Notes under the pieces: generated by a model
Database searches by the model: none
What the model was told of the DNA's origin: nothing
Seen by the model: only the letters and a program-made list of their open reading frames with translations
UHGV virus genome: UHGV-1682877
Strand: one strand, 5' to 3'
Origin: a virus
DNA length: 64,000 nucleotides
Position numbers and translations under genes: made by a program
Shown: positions 10,183 through 53,610 of the stretch, in pieces
Position numbering within the stretch: position 1 is the first letter of the stretch
Layout of the letters: each line of letters opens with the position of its first letter

Positions 10183-10190
10183 GAAGATAA

Positions 10191-10218
10191 AGAGGAGAAT
10201 TTTTTCTCCTCTTTTTTA
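10191..10218 (+). terminator. rho-independent terminator (agaggagaa / ctcctct + T-run)
   Basis: Read directly. Confidence 0.7.
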
Positions 10219-10280
10219 TTACCATAATTATAATAACATATTTTTTGCTAAAAATAAAGTTTGAAACTTTTAGCTTGGCT

Positions 10281-10328
10281 TAGGTCGGGGCGGAGACGTG
10301 CGAATAAAAATAGCTTTAACAAATTTTT
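10281..10328 (+). promoter_or_regulatory. conserved GC-rich 45-nt motif, copy A (ggtcggggcggagacgtgcgaataaaaatagctttaacaaatttttt)
   Basis: One of three near-identical copies (with 17754 and 52119) of a GC-rich block in an AT-rich genome. Confidence 0.6.
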
Positions 10329-10350
10329 TAAAGGATAAAGGAGAATAACA

Positions 10351-11127
10351 ATGTTATATAGTTTAAATACAAGACTAAAAAAATTAATGCCAGATGAAAT
10401 CAAATGTCAAATAAATAGATTAGGAGACATTTTTGATTTAATTAAAGAAAATCCAGACATTAGATGTAATATTCAATACACTAATATGGGCGAATTATCT
10501 GAAAAAAAACTGGATGAACAAATTGATTTCATTAAAGAAGTGGCAAAAGATTATACAATAGCTGTAATTAATTTCCAAGATTTGCGGAAATTAAAAGCAA
10601 AAGGCTATAATGTATATTTAGATTTGCCGGTTTCAGATTGGGAAACTTTTAATAATTTAAAAAATATTGGCGTTTCAGATATTTACATTGACGGAGCTTT
10701 AGGATTCCAAATGGAGAAAATTGGAAAAGCAAAAGGAAAAATAAAGATTAGGGTTACTCCGCATATGTCGCCAAATGCGCAATGGTCATCTTCAGATAAT
10801 GAAAATTCTTTTTATATTCGACCAGAAGATATAGATAATTATTCTAAATATGTAGATATTTTAGACTTTAGAGATAACAGCAAAGATGCAGAAGAAACTT
10901 TATTCAATATTTATAAAAGGAAGATTTTTCCTTTTGATTTAAATAATTTAATTAGACAACTGAATTTACCAACTAATAATATTTATATTGCAAATAGTTT
11001 TTGTTCAAACAGATTGAATTGCGGGCAAAGATGTCAGGAGCCTGATATTTCTTGTCATTTATGTAGAAATGCAATTTTAATTTCTAATAAAATGAATGAA
11101 TATATTAGTTTAACGGAAAAAAATTGA
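10351..11127 (+). CDS. hypothetical protein
   Basis: 258-aa ORF; AAAGGAGAA SD; Cys cluster near C-terminus. Confidence 0.6.
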   Translation: MLYSLNTRLKKLMPDEIKCQINRLGDIFDLIKENPDIRCNIQYTNMGELSEKKLDEQIDFIKEVAKDYTIAVINFQDLRKLKAKGYNVYLDLPVSDWETFNNLKNIGVSDIYIDGALGFQMEKIGKAKGKIKIRVTPHMSPNAQWSSSDNENSFYIRPEDIDNYSKYVDILDFRDNSKDAEETLFNIYKRKIFPFDLNNLIRQLNLPTNNIYIANSFCSNRLNCGQRCQEPDISCHLCRNAILISNKMNEYISLTEKN

Positions 11128-26570: not shown

Positions 26571-28094
26571 ATGGAAAATAAGATGCTTAATATTTTGAAG
26601 GAAAAGAATACTCATTCTATCACTGAGAACGGCGGTTTGACTTATAATTCTACTATGAATGGAATTATGGATTTGTTTGCTCTTGGTGGTGCTTATCGAA
26701 ATCGCTCAGATGATGATTGTATTTTTCTTTTTAAGAAGGCTTTTGAGGAAGATATTTCTTATGCTTTGAAGTGTCTCTTTTATTTGCGAGACGTACGCGG
26801 TGGACAGGGAGAACGCAGATTTTTTAAGGTCGTAACTTCTTGGTTGGCAGTTAATCACACCGAGGAAATGCGTAGAAATCTGAAGTATGTTCCTGAGTAT
26901 GGTCGCTGGGATGATTTGTATGCTTTTGTTGATACTCCGCTTGAGGCAGATGCTTTTAAGACTATGTATCATCAGCTTGCTCTTGATGTTCAGTGTAAAA
27001 CTCCTTCTCTTTTGGCTAAGTGGTTGAAGTCTGAAAATACTTCTTCTGCAGAATCTCGTATGCTTGGAGCTAAAACCAGAATGGCTTTTAATATGTCTCC
27101 TAAGCAGTATCGCAAGATTCTCTCTATTCTTCGTGAAAGAATTAGAGTTTTGGAAAGACTGATGAGTGAAAACCGTTGGGATGAAATTGAATTTGATAAG
27201 ATTCCTTCTAAGGCAGGTCTAAAGTATCGCAATGCTTTTGCAAAGCACGATATTGAAAGAGAAAAGTCTAATAAGGTAACTTATGAAGAGTTTGTAAAGG
27301 ATTCTAATACTAAGGTCAATGCTGATACTTTGAATCCCGCAGATGTAGTTCATGCTGTTGTTTCTAAATTTCCCTATTATAGAGGAAATTTTAATGGAAC
27401 TGATGTGGAGAGAGCTGCACTCAATAAGTATTGGGATAATCTAAAGGATTATTTTAATAATGCTGTTTTTGACGGTGTTGCTGTCGTTGATACTTCTGGT
27501 TCTATGTGTGGTTTTTATGGTAGTGAGAAAACTATTGCACCTATTGATGTAGCTATTTCTCTTGGTATGTATTGTGCTGAGAAGTGTAATCCCAATTCTC
27601 CCTGGTATGGACATTATATTACTTTTTCCCGAACTGCAAGATTGGTACCTGTTGAAGGTATTGATTTTGTTGATAAGGTGCGTAGAATTTATCAAAAGAA
27701 TCTTTGTGAGAATACCAACATTAAAAGTATTTTTGATTTGCTATTGAGCAATGCTATTAAATATAATATTCCTAATGAAGAAATGCCTAAAAACATTGTA
27801 ATCATTAGTGATATGGAATTTGATTATTGCGCTGGTTACTATAATAGTGATGAATACAAGTCTGAAATGGAAAAGATTATGCAAGTTTGGAACTCTCATG
27901 GTTACACTACTCCACATTTGATTTTCTGGAATGTTGACGCTCGAAATGATAATATTCCCATGAAGATGAAGGATGGTATTACTTTTATTTCTGGTTATTC
28001 TGCGGTAACTTATGAAATGTTGATGACTGGTAAAACTGGTTTTGATTTGGTTTTGGAAAAGTTGAACAATAAGAGATATGAGGTAATCAAGTAA
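26571..28094 (+). CDS. vWA-domain protein with Ro60/Rsr-like (TROVE + vWA) architecture
   Basis: 507 aa; MIDAS-type VVDTSGSM about 300 aa from N-terminus; N-terminal ENGGLTY ... LGGAYR resembles TROVE start; AAAAGGAGAA SD. Confidence 0.5.
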   Translation: MENKMLNILKEKNTHSITENGGLTYNSTMNGIMDLFALGGAYRNRSDDDCIFLFKKAFEEDISYALKCLFYLRDVRGGQGERRFFKVVTSWLAVNHTEEMRRNLKYVPEYGRWDDLYAFVDTPLEADAFKTMYHQLALDVQCKTPSLLAKWLKSENTSSAESRMLGAKTRMAFNMSPKQYRKILSILRERIRVLERLMSENRWDEIEFDKIPSKAGLKYRNAFAKHDIEREKSNKVTYEEFVKDSNTKVNADTLNPADVVHAVVSKFPYYRGNFNGTDVERAALNKYWDNLKDYFNNAVFDGVAVVDTSGSMCGFYGSEKTIAPIDVAISLGMYCAEKCNPNSPWYGHYITFSRTARLVPVEGIDFVDKVRRIYQKNLCENTNIKSIFDLLLSNAIKYNIPNEEMPKNIVIISDMEFDYCAGYYNSDEYKSEMEKIMQVWNSHGYTTPHLIFWNVDARNDNIPMKMKDGITFISGYSAVTYEMLMTGKTGFDLVLEKLNNKRYEVIK

Positions 28095-28105
28095 ATAGTA
28101 TTTTA

Positions 28106-28134
28106 AGAGAGGTAAAATTACCTCTCTTTTTTTA
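28106..28134 (+). terminator. rho-independent terminator (agagaggta / tacctctct + T-run)
   Basis: Read directly. Confidence 0.7.
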
Positions 28135-28148
28135 TAAGGAGGATTAAA

Positions 28149-29210
28149 ATGATATTATTAAATGATGATAATAGACACAGAGATTTTACAGGTGTAACTC
28201 GTTTTCACAATGCAGGTTATTTTGGAGAAAGAGTAAATGCCGCAAGTGGAGAAACCTGGGATGTTAATAGATATAATCCAGATAATTTAGTAAGAAATTG
28301 CTTAAAGGATAAACAATTTTCAGATGAACATCCAATAAATACTGCGGCAACATTTTTTCAAGTAGCTCCAAAAGCTCATCTATTTATGCTTTATTCCATT
28401 GATGGCAGTTATGGTAGTGGAGATAATTATAACTCTAAATTTTTTAATGAATCAGTAGAAATTATTGAAAAATATAATATTACTAATATGTTTACCTCTT
28501 TAAATTGTAGTAGACATACTAAATTTTTTGAAGATTTAAAAAATTGGTATATTAAACATCCTAGTTTTAAACCCTTTTGGTGCGCAGGAAATGATTCTTC
28601 TAAAAAATATAATCCAATTATGGAAATTGAAGAAGTAATTGGTGTAGCCGCTTATACTTTAATGGTAAATGGTACAGTAAATCCTGCTTATTATTCTAGT
28701 ATTAGTAGTTATGTAGACTTTTCTGCACCTAGTATGATTTATTTAAATCCGCAAGCTACAAAACCAGACGCAGCAACTTATTCCAATTCTGGTACTTCTT
28801 TTTCTACACCTTGGTTATGTGGAATGAGCTGTTTAGTAGATGATTTCTTTATTGATAAAAAAGGATTACCTCTAACAAGAGAAGGAATGATTCAATTCTT
28901 TAAAGATAATTGTAAAGATATAGGCGATAAGGGTATTGATCCAAAAACAGGATTTGGCGCAGTAATTTTACCTGAACCAAATTCTATTGATATTGATAAA
29001 TATTATAATATTGGGAGGACAAATATGAGTACATTAGATAAATTTAAAGATAAAAATGATATTTCTAATTGGGCTAAAGCAAGTATTGAATGGGCTGTTA
29101 ATACAGGTATTCTTCAAGGTGACGATAAAGGCTATCTTTTACCCAAAGCTTACCTAACTAGAGAGCAAATGGCAGTTATGTTAGAGCGTTTTAAAAATAT
29201 TATAAAATAA
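28149..29210 (+). CDS. subtilisin-like serine protease (S8) with C-terminal SLH-like cell-wall-binding domain
   Basis: GTSFSTPW matches subtilase Ser motif; C-terminal W..A...G...GD..G...P...LTREQ..VMLERF is SLH-like and paralogous to the C-terminus of the 36251 ORF. Confidence 0.6.
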   Translation: MILLNDDNRHRDFTGVTRFHNAGYFGERVNAASGETWDVNRYNPDNLVRNCLKDKQFSDEHPINTAATFFQVAPKAHLFMLYSIDGSYGSGDNYNSKFFNESVEIIEKYNITNMFTSLNCSRHTKFFEDLKNWYIKHPSFKPFWCAGNDSSKKYNPIMEIEEVIGVAAYTLMVNGTVNPAYYSSISSYVDFSAPSMIYLNPQATKPDAATYSNSGTSFSTPWLCGMSCLVDDFFIDKKGLPLTREGMIQFFKDNCKDIGDKGIDPKTGFGAVILPEPNSIDIDKYYNIGRTNMSTLDKFKDKNDISNWAKASIEWAVNTGILQGDDKGYLLPKAYLTREQMAVMLERFKNIIK

Positions 29211-29214
29211 TTTT

Positions 29215-29247
29215 AAGGGAGTCAAAATGACTCCCTTTTTATTTTTT
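29215..29247 (+). terminator. rho-independent terminator (aagggagtc / gactccctt + T-run)
   Basis: Read directly. Confidence 0.7.
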
Positions 29248-29285
29248 TAAAAAAATATTATATAATATATATAGAAAGTTAAGGA
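29240..29285 (+). promoter_or_regulatory. sigma70-like promoter (-10 TATAAT 29261-29266) with leader
   Basis: Family consensus. Confidence 0.55.
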
Positions 29286-29315
29286 ATAAATAAATAAGAA
29301 AGAAGTTGAAATTTT

Positions 29316-29585
29316 ATGATTTATAGAAAAAGCAAATACAGTAAAGATCAGACTGCAATTTGGCAAGGTGAAACTGCGGTTATTCTTGCTCAATCAGCAG
29401 AAGCTATGACAATAGATGAAATTAAAAACAATAGTATTCAATTAACAGGTGTTTCTACTCAAAAAATGGCTAGGATTCTTGGGCATTTGATTGAAATGGG
29501 TATGGTAACAAAAGCAAAAAGCAAAAGTGGAAAAATGGTCTATAAATCTTTGGCAGTAATGGAAATGCAAGGTTATGAAATTTAA
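29316..29585 (+). CDS. hypothetical protein
   Basis: 89-aa ORF; SD AAGAAAGAAG. Confidence 0.5.
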   Translation: MIYRKSKYSKDQTAIWQGETAVILAQSAEAMTIDEIKNNSIQLTGVSTQKMARILGHLIEMGMVTKAKSKSGKMVYKSLAVMEMQGYEI

Positions 29586-29604
29586 ATAAAGGAGTTTGAT
29601 ATTT

Positions 29605-30873
29605 ATGGCATACTATGGTTTAGTAACTAAAATTGAAAATGTAAGAAAAGACCCTAATTCTGATAGACTCTATTTGGCTGATTGTTTTAGAGAAGGAGTT
29701 ATTGTAGGCCCTAATATGAAGGAAAGCGAGTTGGTTCTTTATCTTCCTACTGATGGAGCTATTGAGCGTTGGTTTGGTGATGAGTTTAAACTTTTCCGCA
29801 AGAATTTAGATGGTACCGCGCAAGGTGGTTATTTGGAAAATAATGCTCATATTAGAGCAATTAAGCTAAGAGGTAATGAATCTTCTGGTATTGTTATTTC
29901 TTATTCTACTATTGTTGAGCATTTTGGTGAGCAAAATTGGAAAGATGGCGATCAGGTCACTGAAATTAATAATAAGCTATTTTGTTATAAATATATTCCT
30001 AAACCTTCGGCTATTCCTCGCACTACTCCTAAAACTTCTTATAAAGGTCGTAAAGCAGCTGGAATTAAGTATCCTGATTTTGCCATGCATATTGATACTG
30101 CCCAATTAGCTTACAATCTTGGAATTTTTAGACCTGGAGATAAAATTAATCTAACCCTTAAAATGCATGGAACTAGCCAGCGTAGTGCATATACTTGGGC
30201 AGAATATCCTATGTCTTGGTTTAGAAAGCTATTTCACATGAAACCTAAGAGAAAGTTGCAGTATGTTTTAGGTACTCGTAGAACTGTTGTTACTACTGAT
30301 GGGGTAGGTTATTATGGTAATGACAAATTTAGATTTAGTCACCATGAAGCTTTAAAACCTTATCTCGATGAAGGTATGGAAGTTTTTTATGAAGTAGTTG
30401 GTTGGTATGGAGCAAAAGAAAATGAAACTATTATGCCAATTGTAGATAATAGTAAAATTAATGACAAGAAATTTATGAAAAAGTTTGGTAAGTATACTAC
30501 TTTTTCTTATGGTTGTACTCCTGGTCATTCTGCAATGTGGATTTATAGAATTACTTCTCATAATGGTGAATATGAATATTCTCCAGAGGAAATTACTACT
30601 TGGTGTAATGAATATGGTTTTAATCGTGTTCCTATTATTGAGGATTTTGAATTTACTACTGTTGATGACTTGCTCGCTAAAATTGACAAATATTTTGAAG
30701 ATATTGTTGACCCAGTTGGTTTAACTCATGTTAAAGAAGGTGTAGTAGTTAGAATTGCTAATAGACGTACTTTTACTGCATTAAAACAAAAAACCTGGGA
30801 GTTTAAAGTCCTTGAAGGTCTAGTTAAAGATACTGAAACCCAGCCCGATATGGAAGAAGCACAGGAGGTTTAA
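29605..30873 (+). CDS. ATP-dependent RNA ligase-like protein (Rnl2/Rnl5-type KxHGT motif) with N-terminal extra domain
   Basis: KMHGTS resembles nucleotidyltransferase motif I of T4 Rnl2 (KIHGTN); N-terminal region has OB/tRNA-binding-like motif IKLRGNESSGIV; ATG 29605 after AAAGGAG. Confidence 0.5.
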   Translation: MAYYGLVTKIENVRKDPNSDRLYLADCFREGVIVGPNMKESELVLYLPTDGAIERWFGDEFKLFRKNLDGTAQGGYLENNAHIRAIKLRGNESSGIVISYSTIVEHFGEQNWKDGDQVTEINNKLFCYKYIPKPSAIPRTTPKTSYKGRKAAGIKYPDFAMHIDTAQLAYNLGIFRPGDKINLTLKMHGTSQRSAYTWAEYPMSWFRKLFHMKPKRKLQYVLGTRRTVVTTDGVGYYGNDKFRFSHHEALKPYLDEGMEVFYEVVGWYGAKENETIMPIVDNSKINDKKFMKKFGKYTTFSYGCTPGHSAMWIYRITSHNGEYEYSPEEITTWCNEYGFNRVPIIEDFEFTTVDDLLAKIDKYFEDIVDPVGLTHVKEGVVVRIANRRTFTALKQKTWEFKVLEGLVKDTETQPDMEEAQEV

Positions 30874-30875
30874 AT

Positions 30876-31325
30876 ATGACTTTAGAAATTATGCACAATG
30901 ACATGATGCAGGCTTTGAAGAATGGTGATACTCAAAAGAAGAATGTACTTTCCAATATGATTGGTGAAGTACAAAAAGCAGCAATTACGCCAAAAGGCAG
31001 AATTGAAATTACCGAAGAGCTTGTTAATAATACTTTAATCAAGTATCAAAAGATGATTCAAGAAATGATTGATACTTGTCCAGAAAACCGCAAAGAGTTA
31101 TTTATTCAATATAATCTTGATATGGCTGTTGTAAAGCAGTATGCACCACAACTTCTCACTGACAAAAAAGCAATTAAAACTCAAATTGAAAAGATGCTTG
31201 CAGAAAATGAGCTTGATGCAATTAAGGCAAATAAAGGTAGAGCAATGAAACTTTTTGCTCCTGTTTTTAAGGGTAAGGCAGATATGAAAATTGTTAATCA
31301 AATTGTGTCGGAGGTAATGACCTAA
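30876..31325 (+). CDS. GatB/YqeY-domain protein
   Basis: N-terminus and length typical of YqeY-like proteins; CAGGAGG SD. Confidence 0.45.
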   Translation: MTLEIMHNDMMQALKNGDTQKKNVLSNMIGEVQKAAITPKGRIEITEELVNNTLIKYQKMIQEMIDTCPENRKELFIQYNLDMAVVKQYAPQLLTDKKAIKTQIEKMLAENELDAIKANKGRAMKLFAPVFKGKADMKIVNQIVSEVMT

Positions 31326-52093: not shown

Positions 52094-52118
52094 TTTTTGA
52101 AAGTTTTAGCTGGAAGCT

Positions 52119-52163
52119 CATCGGCGCGGAGACGATGAATTAAAATGGAGTTTAGTAATTTTT
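52119..52163 (+). promoter_or_regulatory. conserved GC-rich 45-nt motif, copy C (catcggcgcggagacgatgaattaaaatggagtttagtaattttt)
   Basis: Near-identical to copies at 10281 and 17754. Confidence 0.6.
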
Positions 52164-52187: not shown

Positions 52188-52424
52188 ATGGATGATATTT
52201 ATAAGTTGCAGGAAGTTTTTGAAGAAAAAGATATGAAAATTAAAGAATATGTTTTTGACAGTTTGTGTTTAAGATACAAATACGCAAGAATGATGTTAGC
52301 TATTTATGAAGTTAAAAATGGCCAGGAATTTGAAACACGAATGAATTTAGCGAGAAGAGATTGTTTACGTTTCTTTGATATTCTTAGAGAAAACCTTTTG
52401 GAGGATAAAAATGACTCTAACTGA
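52188..52424 (+). CDS. hypothetical protein
   Basis: 78-aa ORF; AATAGGAGAAAA SD. Confidence 0.5.
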   Translation: MDDIYKLQEVFEEKDMKIKEYVFDSLCLRYKYARMMLAIYEVKNGQEFETRMNLARRDCLRFFDILRENLLEDKNDSN

Positions 52425-53580
52425 TAAACAATACCAAGGATTGCAGATTGCAGTACAAAGATATAGATCTAAAGAACCATATACTGTAGTTTCGGGATAC
52501 GCTGGAACTGGCAAAAGCACGTTAGTAGGTTTTATTATTGATGCTCTAAATTTAGACAAAGAAAATGATGTAGCTTTTATTGCTTATACAGGTAAAGCTG
52601 CTAAAGTTTTAAAATCAAAAGGTAATAAAAACGCAATGACTGCTCATAAATTACTTTATAAAGCTGTAAAAAATCCTAATGGAACATATAGATTTTATCC
52701 TAAAATGACTATTGATGATTATAAACTTATTGTGGTGGATGAAGTTTCCATGTTACCTAAAAAAATGTGGGAACTTCTTCTTTCCCATCATATTCCTGTT
52801 CTAGCAACTGGTGATCCCGGCCAGTTGCCTGCTTTAACAGAAGGAACAGATATTCTAAATAATCCACATGTTTTTCTTGATGAAATTATGCGGCAGGCGC
52901 AAGAAAGTGAAATTATTAGGTTAAGCATGGATATTAGAAATGGCAAACTTATTAAACCTTTTAAAGGAAAAGAGGTAAATGTAGTTTGTGCTTCTGATTT
53001 AAATCAAGGTATGCTAGCTTGGGCAGATCAGATTATTTGTGCTAAAAATGATACTAGATATTACTTAAATGATGTTTGCCGCAAATTATTCTGGGGTGTT
53101 GATTCAGGTGCTCTTCCTGTTGTTGGAGATAAAATTATTTGTCTGCATAATGATTGGAAAAAATTAAATTCTTTGGAAGACCCACTTATTAATGGTGCAA
53201 TTGGAACTATCAAAAATTATAAAGTTTTATATGATAAAAATTTAAAAGATAATATTCTTAAATTAGATTTTATGCCAGAAGAATACGATGATGAAAATCT
53301 TTTAGGATTATTTTCTATGAATAATGTAGATTATAATCAATTAGTAAATCATACGCCAAGTGTTACTCAAGATAATTATTATCTTTTACCTAAAAATTAC
53401 AAACTTCAAAGTTTTGATTATGGTTATGCAATTACTTGTTGGAAAGCGCAAGGCAACGAATATCAAAAGGTATTAGGTATTGAAGAAAACTTTCCTTTTA
53501 AACAAGAAGAACATAAAAGATATTTATATACTTTAGTGACTCGTGCATCTGAAAAACTTACTCTTGTTTTAAAAAATTAA
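52411..53580 (+). CDS. SF1 DNA helicase (Dda/RecD-like)
   Basis: Walker A SGYAGTGKST, Walker B LIVVDEVSM; internal ATG 52411 after GGAGGA SD. Confidence 0.7.
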   Translation: MTLTDKQYQGLQIAVQRYRSKEPYTVVSGYAGTGKSTLVGFIIDALNLDKENDVAFIAYTGKAAKVLKSKGNKNAMTAHKLLYKAVKNPNGTYRFYPKMTIDDYKLIVVDEVSMLPKKMWELLLSHHIPVLATGDPGQLPALTEGTDILNNPHVFLDEIMRQAQESEIIRLSMDIRNGKLIKPFKGKEVNVVCASDLNQGMLAWADQIICAKNDTRYYLNDVCRKLFWGVDSGALPVVGDKIICLHNDWKKLNSLEDPLINGAIGTIKNYKVLYDKNLKDNILKLDFMPEEYDDENLLGLFSMNNVDYNQLVNHTPSVTQDNYYLLPKNYKLQSFDYGYAITCWKAQGNEYQKVLGIEENFPFKQEEHKRYLYTLVTRASEKLTLVLKN

Positions 53581-53610
53581 AAAAATATGTTATAATATAA
53601 TAAGAAAGGT
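53570..53610 (+). promoter_or_regulatory. sigma70-like promoter (extended -10 TGTTATAAT 53588-53596)
   Basis: Family consensus. Confidence 0.5.

Follow-up and report, generated by a model that had tools for sequence, protein, structure and literature searches.

The element and its genomic setting

This work concerns a short two-part DNA element, a GC-rich box followed by an AT-rich tail, that recurs between the genes of the viral genome UHGV-1682877; the whole 64,000-nucleotide (nt) stretch of this genome that was analysed is referred to throughout as the window. All window genes, among them 17 tRNA genes, lie on the plus strand, and those for replication and nucleotide metabolism include gyrase B/A, ligase, ThyX, DnaB, a primase-like protein, RecJ, a RecD-like helicase, DnaE, NrdD and dUTPase. 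The best annotated match of the window DnaE is YorL of Bacillus phage SPbeta (38.8% identity), and the segment 44.8-57.5 kb is syntenic with SPbeta yorF-yorL; compared with SPbeta, it has an insertion between the RecJ and DnaE homologues that consists of copy 3 of the element, an open reading frame (ORF) of 78 amino acids (aa), the helicase gene and a sigma-A promoter. When 21 kb of the window was compared by megablast with 50,697 phage records, no match was obtained. The whole genome is represented by a near-identical IMG/VR contig of 137,669 bp, in which the window lies in an early/replication/accessory arm of ~86 kb, whereas the convergent structural arm of ~51 kb opens with an ordinary sigma-A-type promoter (TTGACT-N18-TATAAT). 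A very uniform promoter of the sigma-A type, AAATTGAAAATTT..TGATATAATATATATAGAAAG, is present in about 20 copies in the window itself. Since a Lachnospiraceae metagenome-assembled genome supplies one homologue of the 258-aa protein encoded behind copy 1, and two window proteins contain SLH domains, the host of this uncultivated SPbeta-related gut phage is probably a gut clostridial Firmicute, and probably one of the Lachnospiraceae.

The window holds exactly three copies of the element, all in the same orientation (10286-10329, 17756-17800 and 52122-52163, plus strand), which follow the pattern YCGGSGCGGRSACG-N2-3-GAATWAAAAT-RG-N1-2-TTTARYAAWTTTTT and amount overall to ~45-55 bp of GC-box/AT-tail DNA. 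Each begins with a 13-nt GC block, CGGSGCGGRSACG, separated by 2-3 variable bases from GAATWAAAAT and the RG that follows it; next come TTTAR and a T-run of the form AAWTTTTT (for coordinates, see Table 1). A first-pass annotation, made from the letters of the sequence, had reported three such copies, and they are located where it placed them: a scan for the GC block at up to two mismatches yields 3 matches against a mean of 0.10 in shuffled sequences, with none of the 100 shuffles reaching 3. The description of this block as a strong compositional outlier was also apt, in that the window is ~30% GC and uninterrupted G/C runs of at least 8 nt occur just five times in it, three times as part of the element copies. 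Nor does any copy overlap the sigma-70-like promoter family, in agreement with the same annotation and as judged against the ~20-member sigma-A-like family. The AT-rich half alone is too unspecific in AT-rich DNA, with 125 regular-expression matches versus 46 in shuffles. Copies 1 and 3 have ~18 nt more in common upstream (TTTGAAANTTTTAGCTKG), where the homology stops. As there is no longer flanking homology, the copies are not remnants of a duplicated segment, the origin that the first-pass annotation had named as speaking against its motif. The window copies are asymmetric and show no dyad beyond the A-run and the T-run.

Copy 1 lies 70 nt 3' of a clear intrinsic terminator, and copy 2 lies 15 nt 3' of a hairpin that has a T-run and comes after tRNA-Gln; the RecJ stop codon is 25 nt upstream of copy 3, with no terminator in between. 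All three were described at first as intergenic and about 50-90 nt upstream of a plus-strand gene; the intergenic position holds, whereas the distances from the end of the motif to the next ATG (at 10351, 17895 and 52188) are, in fact, 22, 95 and 25 nt. At copies 1 and 2, the scan detected no sigma-70-like promoter between the terminator and the ATG.

Table 1. Window coordinates of the element copies, of the hairpins that precede two of them and of the units behind them
Feature	Coordinates	Strand	Remarks
Element copy 1	10285-10329	+	Y + GC block CGGGGCGGAGACG (10286-10298), GAATAAAAAT (10302-10311), TTTAA (10315-10319), AAATTTTTT (10321-10329)
Element copy 2	17755-17800	+	GC block CGGCGCGGGCACG (17756-17768), GAATTAAAAT (17772-17781), TTTAG (17786-17790), AATTTTTTT (17792-17800); also in strain L185
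Element copy 3	52118-52163	+	TCAT + GC block CGGCGCGGAGACG (52122-52134), GAATTAAAAT (52137-52146), TTTAG (52151-52155), AATTTTT (52157-52163)
Intrinsic terminator of the unit upstream of copy 1	10189-10222	+	Stem 10189-10214 plus T-run; terminator scan
Hairpin ACCTCAAGT-TTTA-AACTTGAGGT + T-run, upstream of copy 2	17710-17740	+	Read by eye; too few G-C pairs (below 3) to be called by the scan
Unit behind copy 1: 258-aa ORF	10351-11127	+	Function not assigned; 237 homologues, encoded on large phage contigs of similar kind
Unit behind copy 2: six ORFs (89, 410, 121, 168, 403 and 156 aa)	17895-22083	+	Tail-fibre/tail-spike-like
Unit behind copy 3: 78-aa ORF (52188-52424) + RecD/Dda-like superfamily 1 helicase (52375-53580)	52188-53580	+	

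The likeness of the copy 2 unit to tail fibres or tail spikes stems from a sub-cut-off match to Pfam Mtd_N and an N-terminal match to phrog_27786; this unit ends at the next sigma-A-like promoter (22125-22170). The copy 3 unit, the first ORF of which fell below the 80-aa cut-off of the ORF list, likewise ends at a sigma-A-like promoter (53568-53596), which is followed by DnaE. For the small ORFs behind the element, no homology across phages was found. The gene behind copy 1 is flanked by two paralogous Zn-finger proteins (557 and 434 aa; E = 2e-18) that are conserved in relatives and for which a confident structural model (predicted local distance difference test score, pLDDT, 91) matched no known fold.

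Copy number and variation among strains

The first-pass annotation had proposed a genome-wide motif count. The near-identical 137.7-kb relative was walked with all eight viral scans, covering ~93% of its length, and in this portion searches with the GC block found only three copies, syntenic with those of the window, and no fourth. In a metagenome collection, the strict pattern hit three stretches only, which are the same three sites of one further strain. Looser patterns lose specificity: 17 of the 19 matches of a loose motif scan of viral contigs are unrelated coding sequence, and a scan of a genome collection with ACGA..AAAAT..TTTAG.AAWTTTT returned random matches from all phyla, none true among the 120 matches listed, and is uninformative on host promoters.

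Strains that differ little from the window reveal which positions are held constant. Eight variants of copy 1 were aligned, and three of copy 3 and two of copy 2 were read by eye. The core is invariant across these variants save for one R position (AAAAT-R-G; AATAGC to AATGGC in copy 1); the other substitutions fall in the 2-3 nt directly 5' of CGG, where most are CCGG to TCGG, and directly 3' of the T-run. Among the copy 1 variants, the flanking coding DNA is 95-100% identical. One CCGG to TCGG polymorphism adjoins the 5' side of the GC block at both copy 1 (10283-10286) and copy 2 (17754-17756) in the comparison with L010, L185, L186 and L325-L330 (L-numbers denote the retrieved loci or contigs of relatives and strains); this recurrent change may reflect a methyl-cytosine deamination hotspot or a free position.

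Conservation in distant relatives

The chief new finding comes from the distant relatives. We compared 80 viral contigs that encode a helicase 42-55% identical to that of the window; 74 of these loci could be scored. At least 17 of the 74 (~30 when judged by eye) show one and the same arrangement ahead of the helicase unit, namely, a terminator, a GC-rich stretch of 15-60 nt, and then nAAAAAT-N2-5-YTTTRG-N0-2-A(A)ATTTTT. The sequence of the GC-rich stretch varies between sub-lineages; within a sub-lineage, however, the 5' half of the element is conserved as well, as judged from an alignment of the window copies with L204, L080, L084, L201, L024 and L021. In particular, copy 3 of the window, L204, L080 and L084 have in common a sequence of ~52-55 bp, TCATYGG.GCGGA.ACGA-N6-8-AAAAW-N3-5-YTTTAG-AAATTTTT. 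In L021, L024, L025, L056, L080, L084 and L096, the T-run directly abuts GGAGG-ATG, an arrangement like that of the window. Hence, any start site in these loci must lie upstream of the T-run, which fits AAAAAT as a -10 element.

The element also recurs before the other two gene sets: it precedes a homologue of the 258-aa protein in L201 (40% identity) and an operon of a small ORF and an Mtd_N fibre gene in L204. It is thus found at all three orthologous positions in relatives of 40-55% protein identity. At the same positions, host-type promoters come and go. A canonical sigma-A promoter (TTGAyw-N17-TGnTATAAT) is situated 1-18 nt 3' of the element in L043, L046-50, L073, L091 and L099 and, by eye, in L036, L058 and L085, while 45 helicase loci have sigma-A-type promoters alone. 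At the positions orthologous to copy 1 or copy 2, a sigma-A promoter replaces the element in L198-L200, L203, L204 and L331 (before the 258-aa gene in L198, L199, L200, L203 and L204). The occurrence of the element, a sigma-A promoter or both at the same positions is the pattern expected of alternative or tandem promoters. Judging from this comparative sequence evidence, the three window sites appear to be members of a conserved family-wide regulon, the orthologous genes of which switch between the element, a host-type promoter and both.

The L331 position that is orthologous to copy 2 has a peculiarity of its own: the 176-nt segment 13965-14140 folds strongly (z = -3.4), is followed by a strong terminator and has a tRNA-Gln-like arm (CUUUGAC loop, ..ACCA end) that contains GGAGCAGACGAC, although Rfam calls no tRNA there.

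Tests against known classes of signals

Is the element, then, a known signal in an unfamiliar guise? At the level of RNA structure, fold z-scores against shuffles of +0.5 to +1.1 were obtained for the plus strand of the window copies, and a value of -1.7 solely for copy 3 on the minus strand. RNAalifold, applied to nine diverse members, predicts 0 pairs, and the sole candidate hairpin (NNAAA..TTTNN) is paired at 66.7% as compared to 64.2% in shuffles. Rfam reports only tRNAs at the gathering threshold, and a search with copy 2 at E<=5 gave no family on the motif. The small structured leader RNA considered in the first-pass annotation thus finds no backing, either in folding or in the covariation check that was suggested along with it.

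Among promoters, a sigma-70/sigma-A site with a -35 hexamer (at least 4/6 of TTGACA, spacing of 16-18 bp) was not found by the scan in the terminator-to-ATG gap of copies 1 and 2, and the scan of copy 3 gives a single 9/12 match, TTAAAA-17-TAGAAT, that these two copies lack. As for a TATAAT-like -10 hexamer, the A at position 2 and the T at position 6 are present in TAAAAT of copies 2 and 3 and in AAAAAT, the form of copy 1 and most relatives, whereas five relatives (see below) have G as the last base; the sequence 17-18 bp upstream of TAAAAT is CTCATC or TTCATT, which is 2-3/6 against a -35 hexamer. The consensus for sigma-H is RNAGGAWWW-N11-12-RNNGAATWW. GAAT is present in the three window copies, but none of them has AGGA at the spacing required; in copy 1, the AGG that might serve varies from strain to strain, and GAAT is missing in most relatives. 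Nor do the copies match the sigma-54 consensus (GG-N10-GC; TGGCAC-N5-TTGC): copy 2 has GGCACG followed by AGCGAATT, with no GC at -12, and copies 1 and 3 are without GGCAC. As for terminators, the scan calls the upstream one at 10189-10214 and nothing on the motifs; in the window copies, only A-U pairs flank the T-run. The anatomies of tRNA-derived, CRISPR-repeat-like, ops/JUMPStart-like and Chi-like sequences did not match either. The copies are direct and not dyad-symmetric, unlike the crossover sites of serine invertases (hix/gix/cix). A diversity-generating retroelement (DGR) with a template repeat (TR) and a variable repeat (VR) is encoded outside the window (see below); its TR has no match in the window, and the GC run at the VR end, the initiation of mutagenic homing (IMH) site, differs in sequence and orientation. 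Finally, the MrpR operator SPBRE, which we re-derived from its ten published targets as ACAAATACAAATAATATGTATA, is unrelated to the motif.

A non-sigma-A promoter as the favored interpretation

The element is intergenic and co-oriented with the genes, usually lies just past a terminator, is kept at three orthologous positions and is substituted by a sigma-A promoter in relatives; therefore, a function at the DNA level fits best. Of the functions that the first-pass annotation had entertained, the promoter or transcription-factor site is retained in this general form, whereas two of its variants, the structured RNA and a promoter for a phage-specific RNA polymerase or sigma factor, fare poorly. 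We tentatively favor, at somewhat less than even confidence, the view that the element is a cis-acting transcription signal in DNA, most likely a non-sigma-A promoter used by the host RNA polymerase together with a putative phage factor. As such, it would turn on the 258-aa gene, the tail-fibre-like operon and, as a third separate unit, the small ORF with the helicase. The nAAAAAT sequence (TAAAAT in copies 2 and 3) would act as a -10-like element, with transcription predicted to start 5-8 nt downstream, at the purine of YTTTR-G, and AAWTTTTT would be the start of a short U-rich leader that reaches the Shine-Dalgarno sequence. The GC box (YCGGSGCGGRSACG, at ~-32 to -20) would stand in for the -35 hexamer and dock the putative factor, which could be an activator or a sigma-appropriation-like protein that redirects the host RNA polymerase.

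Several observations weigh against this scheme. The spacing between the GC part and AAAAAT is 6-7 nt in the window, ~25-30 nt in L096 and L072, and 40-60 nt in loci of the L046 type, a variation that poorly fits a rigid two-part promoter. The final T of AAAAAT is replaced by G in L032, L058, L084, L099 and L204. Nothing but a terminator hairpin and a ribosome-binding site stands before the homologue of the 258-aa gene in L202 and L332; read-through therefore expresses genes in this phage family, and the lack of a sigma-A promoter is no proof that the element is a promoter. Copy 3 is located within a sigma-A-driven replication operon, with no terminator before it. Because the structural arm opens with a sigma-A-type promoter, the element is not "the late promoter" of the phage either.

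The factor itself was searched for by several routes. No Pfam match to a sigma factor or RNA polymerase was obtained among ~60 window ORFs or among 17 ORFs of the relative. Phmmer searches with YonO, the single-subunit RNA polymerase of SPbeta, of the limited sensitivity inherent in phmmer alone, gave no significant match in the window, the 80 helicase loci, L193 and L197 (L102, L182, L184 and L190 were left out); those with SigF, SigW and SigH of B. subtilis gave none in the ORFs of the retrieved loci (L190 and L193 were left out). Together, the YonO and sigma searches spanned most of the walked relative, all but ~2-7% of the genome. In the early region of a sister strain, the precomputed Pfam table lists only small unannotated genes and one AbrB/MazE-type DNA-binding protein. 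No polymerase, sigma factor or recognisable activator came to light by Pfam and phmmer, and no homologue of the sigma-70-family, YonO or T7 type is detectable in ~93-98% of the genome; the idea of a phage-specific RNA polymerase or sigma factor is not supported. It is on account of this result, the variable spacing, the non-universal last T, the read-through in L202 and L332 and the location of copy 3 in an operon that our confidence in the promoter is held at the level indicated.

A more ambitious version of the promoter hypothesis, which we consider unlikely as a whole, is that of a new phage transcription switch: a phage protein would retarget the host RNA polymerase to the GC-box promoters of a conserved three-operon "middle" regulon, the GC box co-evolving with the factor. 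If so, the regulon of the switch would unite the 258-aa gene, the accessory tail-fibre operon and the Dda/RecD-like helicase across hundreds of uncultivated relatives of SPbeta that infect gut and rumen Firmicutes, and the types of GC box (ACGA-type versus GGCCGG-type) would track the factor. Even in its modest version, a promoter would provide a handle on expression timing in a large clade of gut and rumen phages that are related to SPbeta, 100-200 kb in size and, without exception, uncultivated, with a three-operon regulon that is recognisable from sequence alone and predicts a transcription factor. Orthologous genes that swap a host-type promoter for the element are, in addition, a natural experiment in the rewiring of phage timing.

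Alternative interpretations

The alternative that survives best, albeit an unlikely one, is that the element is an operator or another protein-binding site rather than a promoter, such that a phage regulator bound to the GC box and the AT-rich, palindrome-like tail gates read-through or adjacent sigma-A promoters; a repressor, an anti-terminator loader or a nucleoid-type protein could be the regulator. A long element, conserved in sequence and present in few copies, would suit such a role, as would its position 1-18 nt upstream of the sigma-A -35 hexamer in at least 9 relatives, a spot for an activator or repressor site or for an UP-like T-tract. The early region encodes the AbrB/MazE-type DNA-binding protein mentioned above, L202 and L332 attest to read-through expression, and SPbeta-like phages are known to employ a repeated operator, SPBRE, which is bound by MrpR and has ten published targets (PMC10516654). 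Against this stand the lack of any sigma-A promoter near the element in the window, L021, L024, L025, L080 and L201, the lack of similarity to SPBRE (ACAAATACAAATAATATGTATA) and the asymmetry of the window copies, which are not dyads. Should the element prove to be an operator or an antitermination site, it would still be a compact regulatory part, ordinary in kind.

Action at the RNA level appears quite improbable. Here, the element would be a leader of the nut/rrn-antiterminator type, with the variable GC-rich part as a boxB-like component and YUUURGNAAW as a BoxA-like core, that serves as an antitermination signal, a processing site or a U-rich translation enhancer. In its favor, the element has a direction and is invariably placed in the leader of the following unit; in relatives, its GC-rich part is prone to form hairpins and varies in length, and its T-run abuts the Shine-Dalgarno sequence in many of them; copy 3 is certainly transcribed as part of the replication operon, and some genes of the family rely on terminator read-through. 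At copies 1 and 2, however, the element comes after the nearest terminator, not before it, and in the at least 9 relatives with a sigma-A promoter downstream of the element, the transcript from that promoter would not contain it. None of the structural tests (fold z-scores, RNAalifold, hairpin pairing against shuffles, Rfam at E<=5) speaks for such a leader. The resemblance of GCUUUAACAA in copy 1 to the E. coli BoxA (GCUCUUUAACAA) is short and AT-rich.

A site for a DNA transaction (a serine-recombinase site, a replication origin or priming signal, a Chi-like site or a GC run resembling the IMH of a DGR) is very improbable. The neighborhood invites the idea, with a recombinase of resolvase/invertase size (205 aa) encoded ~5 kb past the window, a complete DGR ~10 kb past it, one copy before tail-fibre genes and another before a helicase; the A5T..AT5 arms are loosely hix-like. 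Yet the copies are direct and 7.5 and 34 kb apart, so that recombination between them would delete essential genes, and they lack dyad symmetry. The TR/VR end of the DGR (ACCTCGCGCCCG) has another sequence, is oriented the other way and is located at the 3' end of a gene, and a strict position between terminator and ribosome-binding site, seen in many phages ahead of three unrelated sets of genes, speaks for gene expression instead. Least credible of all is a non-functional remnant, be it chance or a decayed mobile or duplicated sequence (for instance, a tRNA-Gln fragment or an inverted sigma-A-promoter/GC-hairpin unit): copy 2 does follow tRNA-Gln, the orthologous spot in L331 is a tRNA-like segment with GGAGCAGACGAC, and a GC-hairpin family of the early region has GGCGCGG..ACGA..AATT in common with the element, but the shuffles exclude chance, strains differ in the flanks of the core but not in the core itself, three orthologous positions are kept at 40-55% protein identity, the flanking homology of the copies ends after ~18 nt, and the tRNA model does not match the motif.

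Other features of the genome and its relatives

The early-region GC-hairpin family just mentioned lies outside the window (L333 80-9800, equivalent to L197 15.5-20.5 kb) and counts five copies, each a hairpin (GGCGGCGCGC..GCGCCG) with a tail, AATTTCAATTATACC..TTTTGTCAA, behind it; read on the other strand, this tail is a canonical sigma-A promoter that fires into the hairpin, and its GC part resembles the GC block of the element. The sigma-A-type promoter family of the window (1126-53610, e.g., 4142-4187 and 24645-24690) is conserved well outside the hexamers (AAATTGAAAATTT..TGATATAATATATATAGAAAGTTAAGGAAAG), which may point to an additional role, in recognition or as an operator, of the sequence downstream of the -10 hexamer.

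At the start of the window (1-140), there are three 42-nt tandem repeats (ATTTTAAAATATTTTAAGAGATTTTATTATAAGCACTTCTCC), and the ENA and Logan assemblies of this phage, retrieved with the two outermost genes of the window, stop at these repeats or close to them, which suggests a genome terminus, an origin or an assembly-breaking repeat. The tRNA gene at 16876-16948, to which ARAGORN assigns a four-base anticodon (tgaa) and no amino acid and which Rfam scores as a tRNA at 53 bits, could be frameshift-suppressor-like or otherwise unusual. Within 26571-31325, the gene of a DUF2828/DUF7788 protein adjoins the second cluster of tRNA genes as well as genes for a YqeY-like protein and an RNA ligase, a neighborhood that looks like a tRNA/RNA repair module; DUF2828 may be related to Ro60/TROVE. 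A sub-threshold Y-RNA-like (YrlA) match is located beside a tRNA in L331 (13529-13645).

The complete DGR, on L102 (3312-7415; ~10 kb past the window end), comprises a 594-aa Big_3 target with the VR at 5645-5752, an avd-sized ORF, a TR (4847-4954) whose identity with the VR is 79.6% in a 108-nt comparison, and the gene of a reverse transcriptase (RVT_1, 7e-15). In L193, GC-richer, structured-looking gaps (4720-4974, 5717-5863 and 6669-6910) split ORFs of the terminase/portal region; they may be group I introns or similar, with no Rfam match at the gathering threshold. A dyad, AATTGCCAAAATTTTGGGCAATT, is found ~80 nt upstream of a serine recombinase gene in unrelated phages (L103 918, L104 1592, L109 9922) and is likely to be a recombinase or operator site.

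Comparison with known systems

In bacteriophage T4, middle promoters combine a MotA box at about -30 with a sigma-70 -10 hexamer and are activated via sigma appropriation by MotA/AsiA. By textbook comparison, the element is alike in having an AT-rich -10-like hexamer, no -35 consensus and a phage-specific box at ~-32 to -20; in both cases, a subset of genes is served beside host-type promoters, tandem arrangements occur, and the geometry is compatible provided that transcription starts at YTTTR. The element differs in that its box is GC-rich, as opposed to TGCTT, there are only three sites per genome, and the spacing varies between relatives; no homologue of MotA or AsiA was found here, no search having been aimed at them. 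The middle promoters of phage SPO1, recognized by gp28, have the sequence AGGAGA-N17-18-TTTNTTT, with which copies 1 and 3 (CGGAGA-N18-TTTAxxA) share a superficial likeness in hexamers and spacing, and the host phylum matches. However, GGAGA is not conserved (GGGCA in copy 2; CAGAGA, CGGACA and CGCAAA in relatives), the implied start would fall on or past the Shine-Dalgarno sequence in relatives, and no sigma-like gene was found.

With the lambda nut and rrn BoxA-BoxB sites, the element shares a two-part, directional, low-copy leader arrangement, a variable hairpin-prone part, a core of the CUUUA/GA type and the occurrence of read-through in the family, whereas in most instances it does not stand where such a site should with respect to promoters and terminators, and a conserved hairpin is lacking.

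The remaining comparison is with SPbeta, the closest annotated relative. A motif scan of 84 kb of SPbeta found no element, and the region of the YonO start site, which was mapped between primer-extension primers (PMC5467207; L100 10349-10552, minus strand), shows by eye no similarity to it; an 11-mer, TGCGGCTGGTC, that is common to the P_YonO region and the L049/L050 elements is within chance given the number of comparisons. SPBRE, too, is different, being an AT-rich 15-22-mer. What the two phages would have in common is the style of regulation: SPbeta also uses a low-copy special promoter, the late promoter P_YonO of the single-subunit RNA polymerase YonO, along with a repeated operator. The promoter or operator interpretation is supported in kind, with the element as a phage-specific regulatory or promoter motif of a familiar sort.

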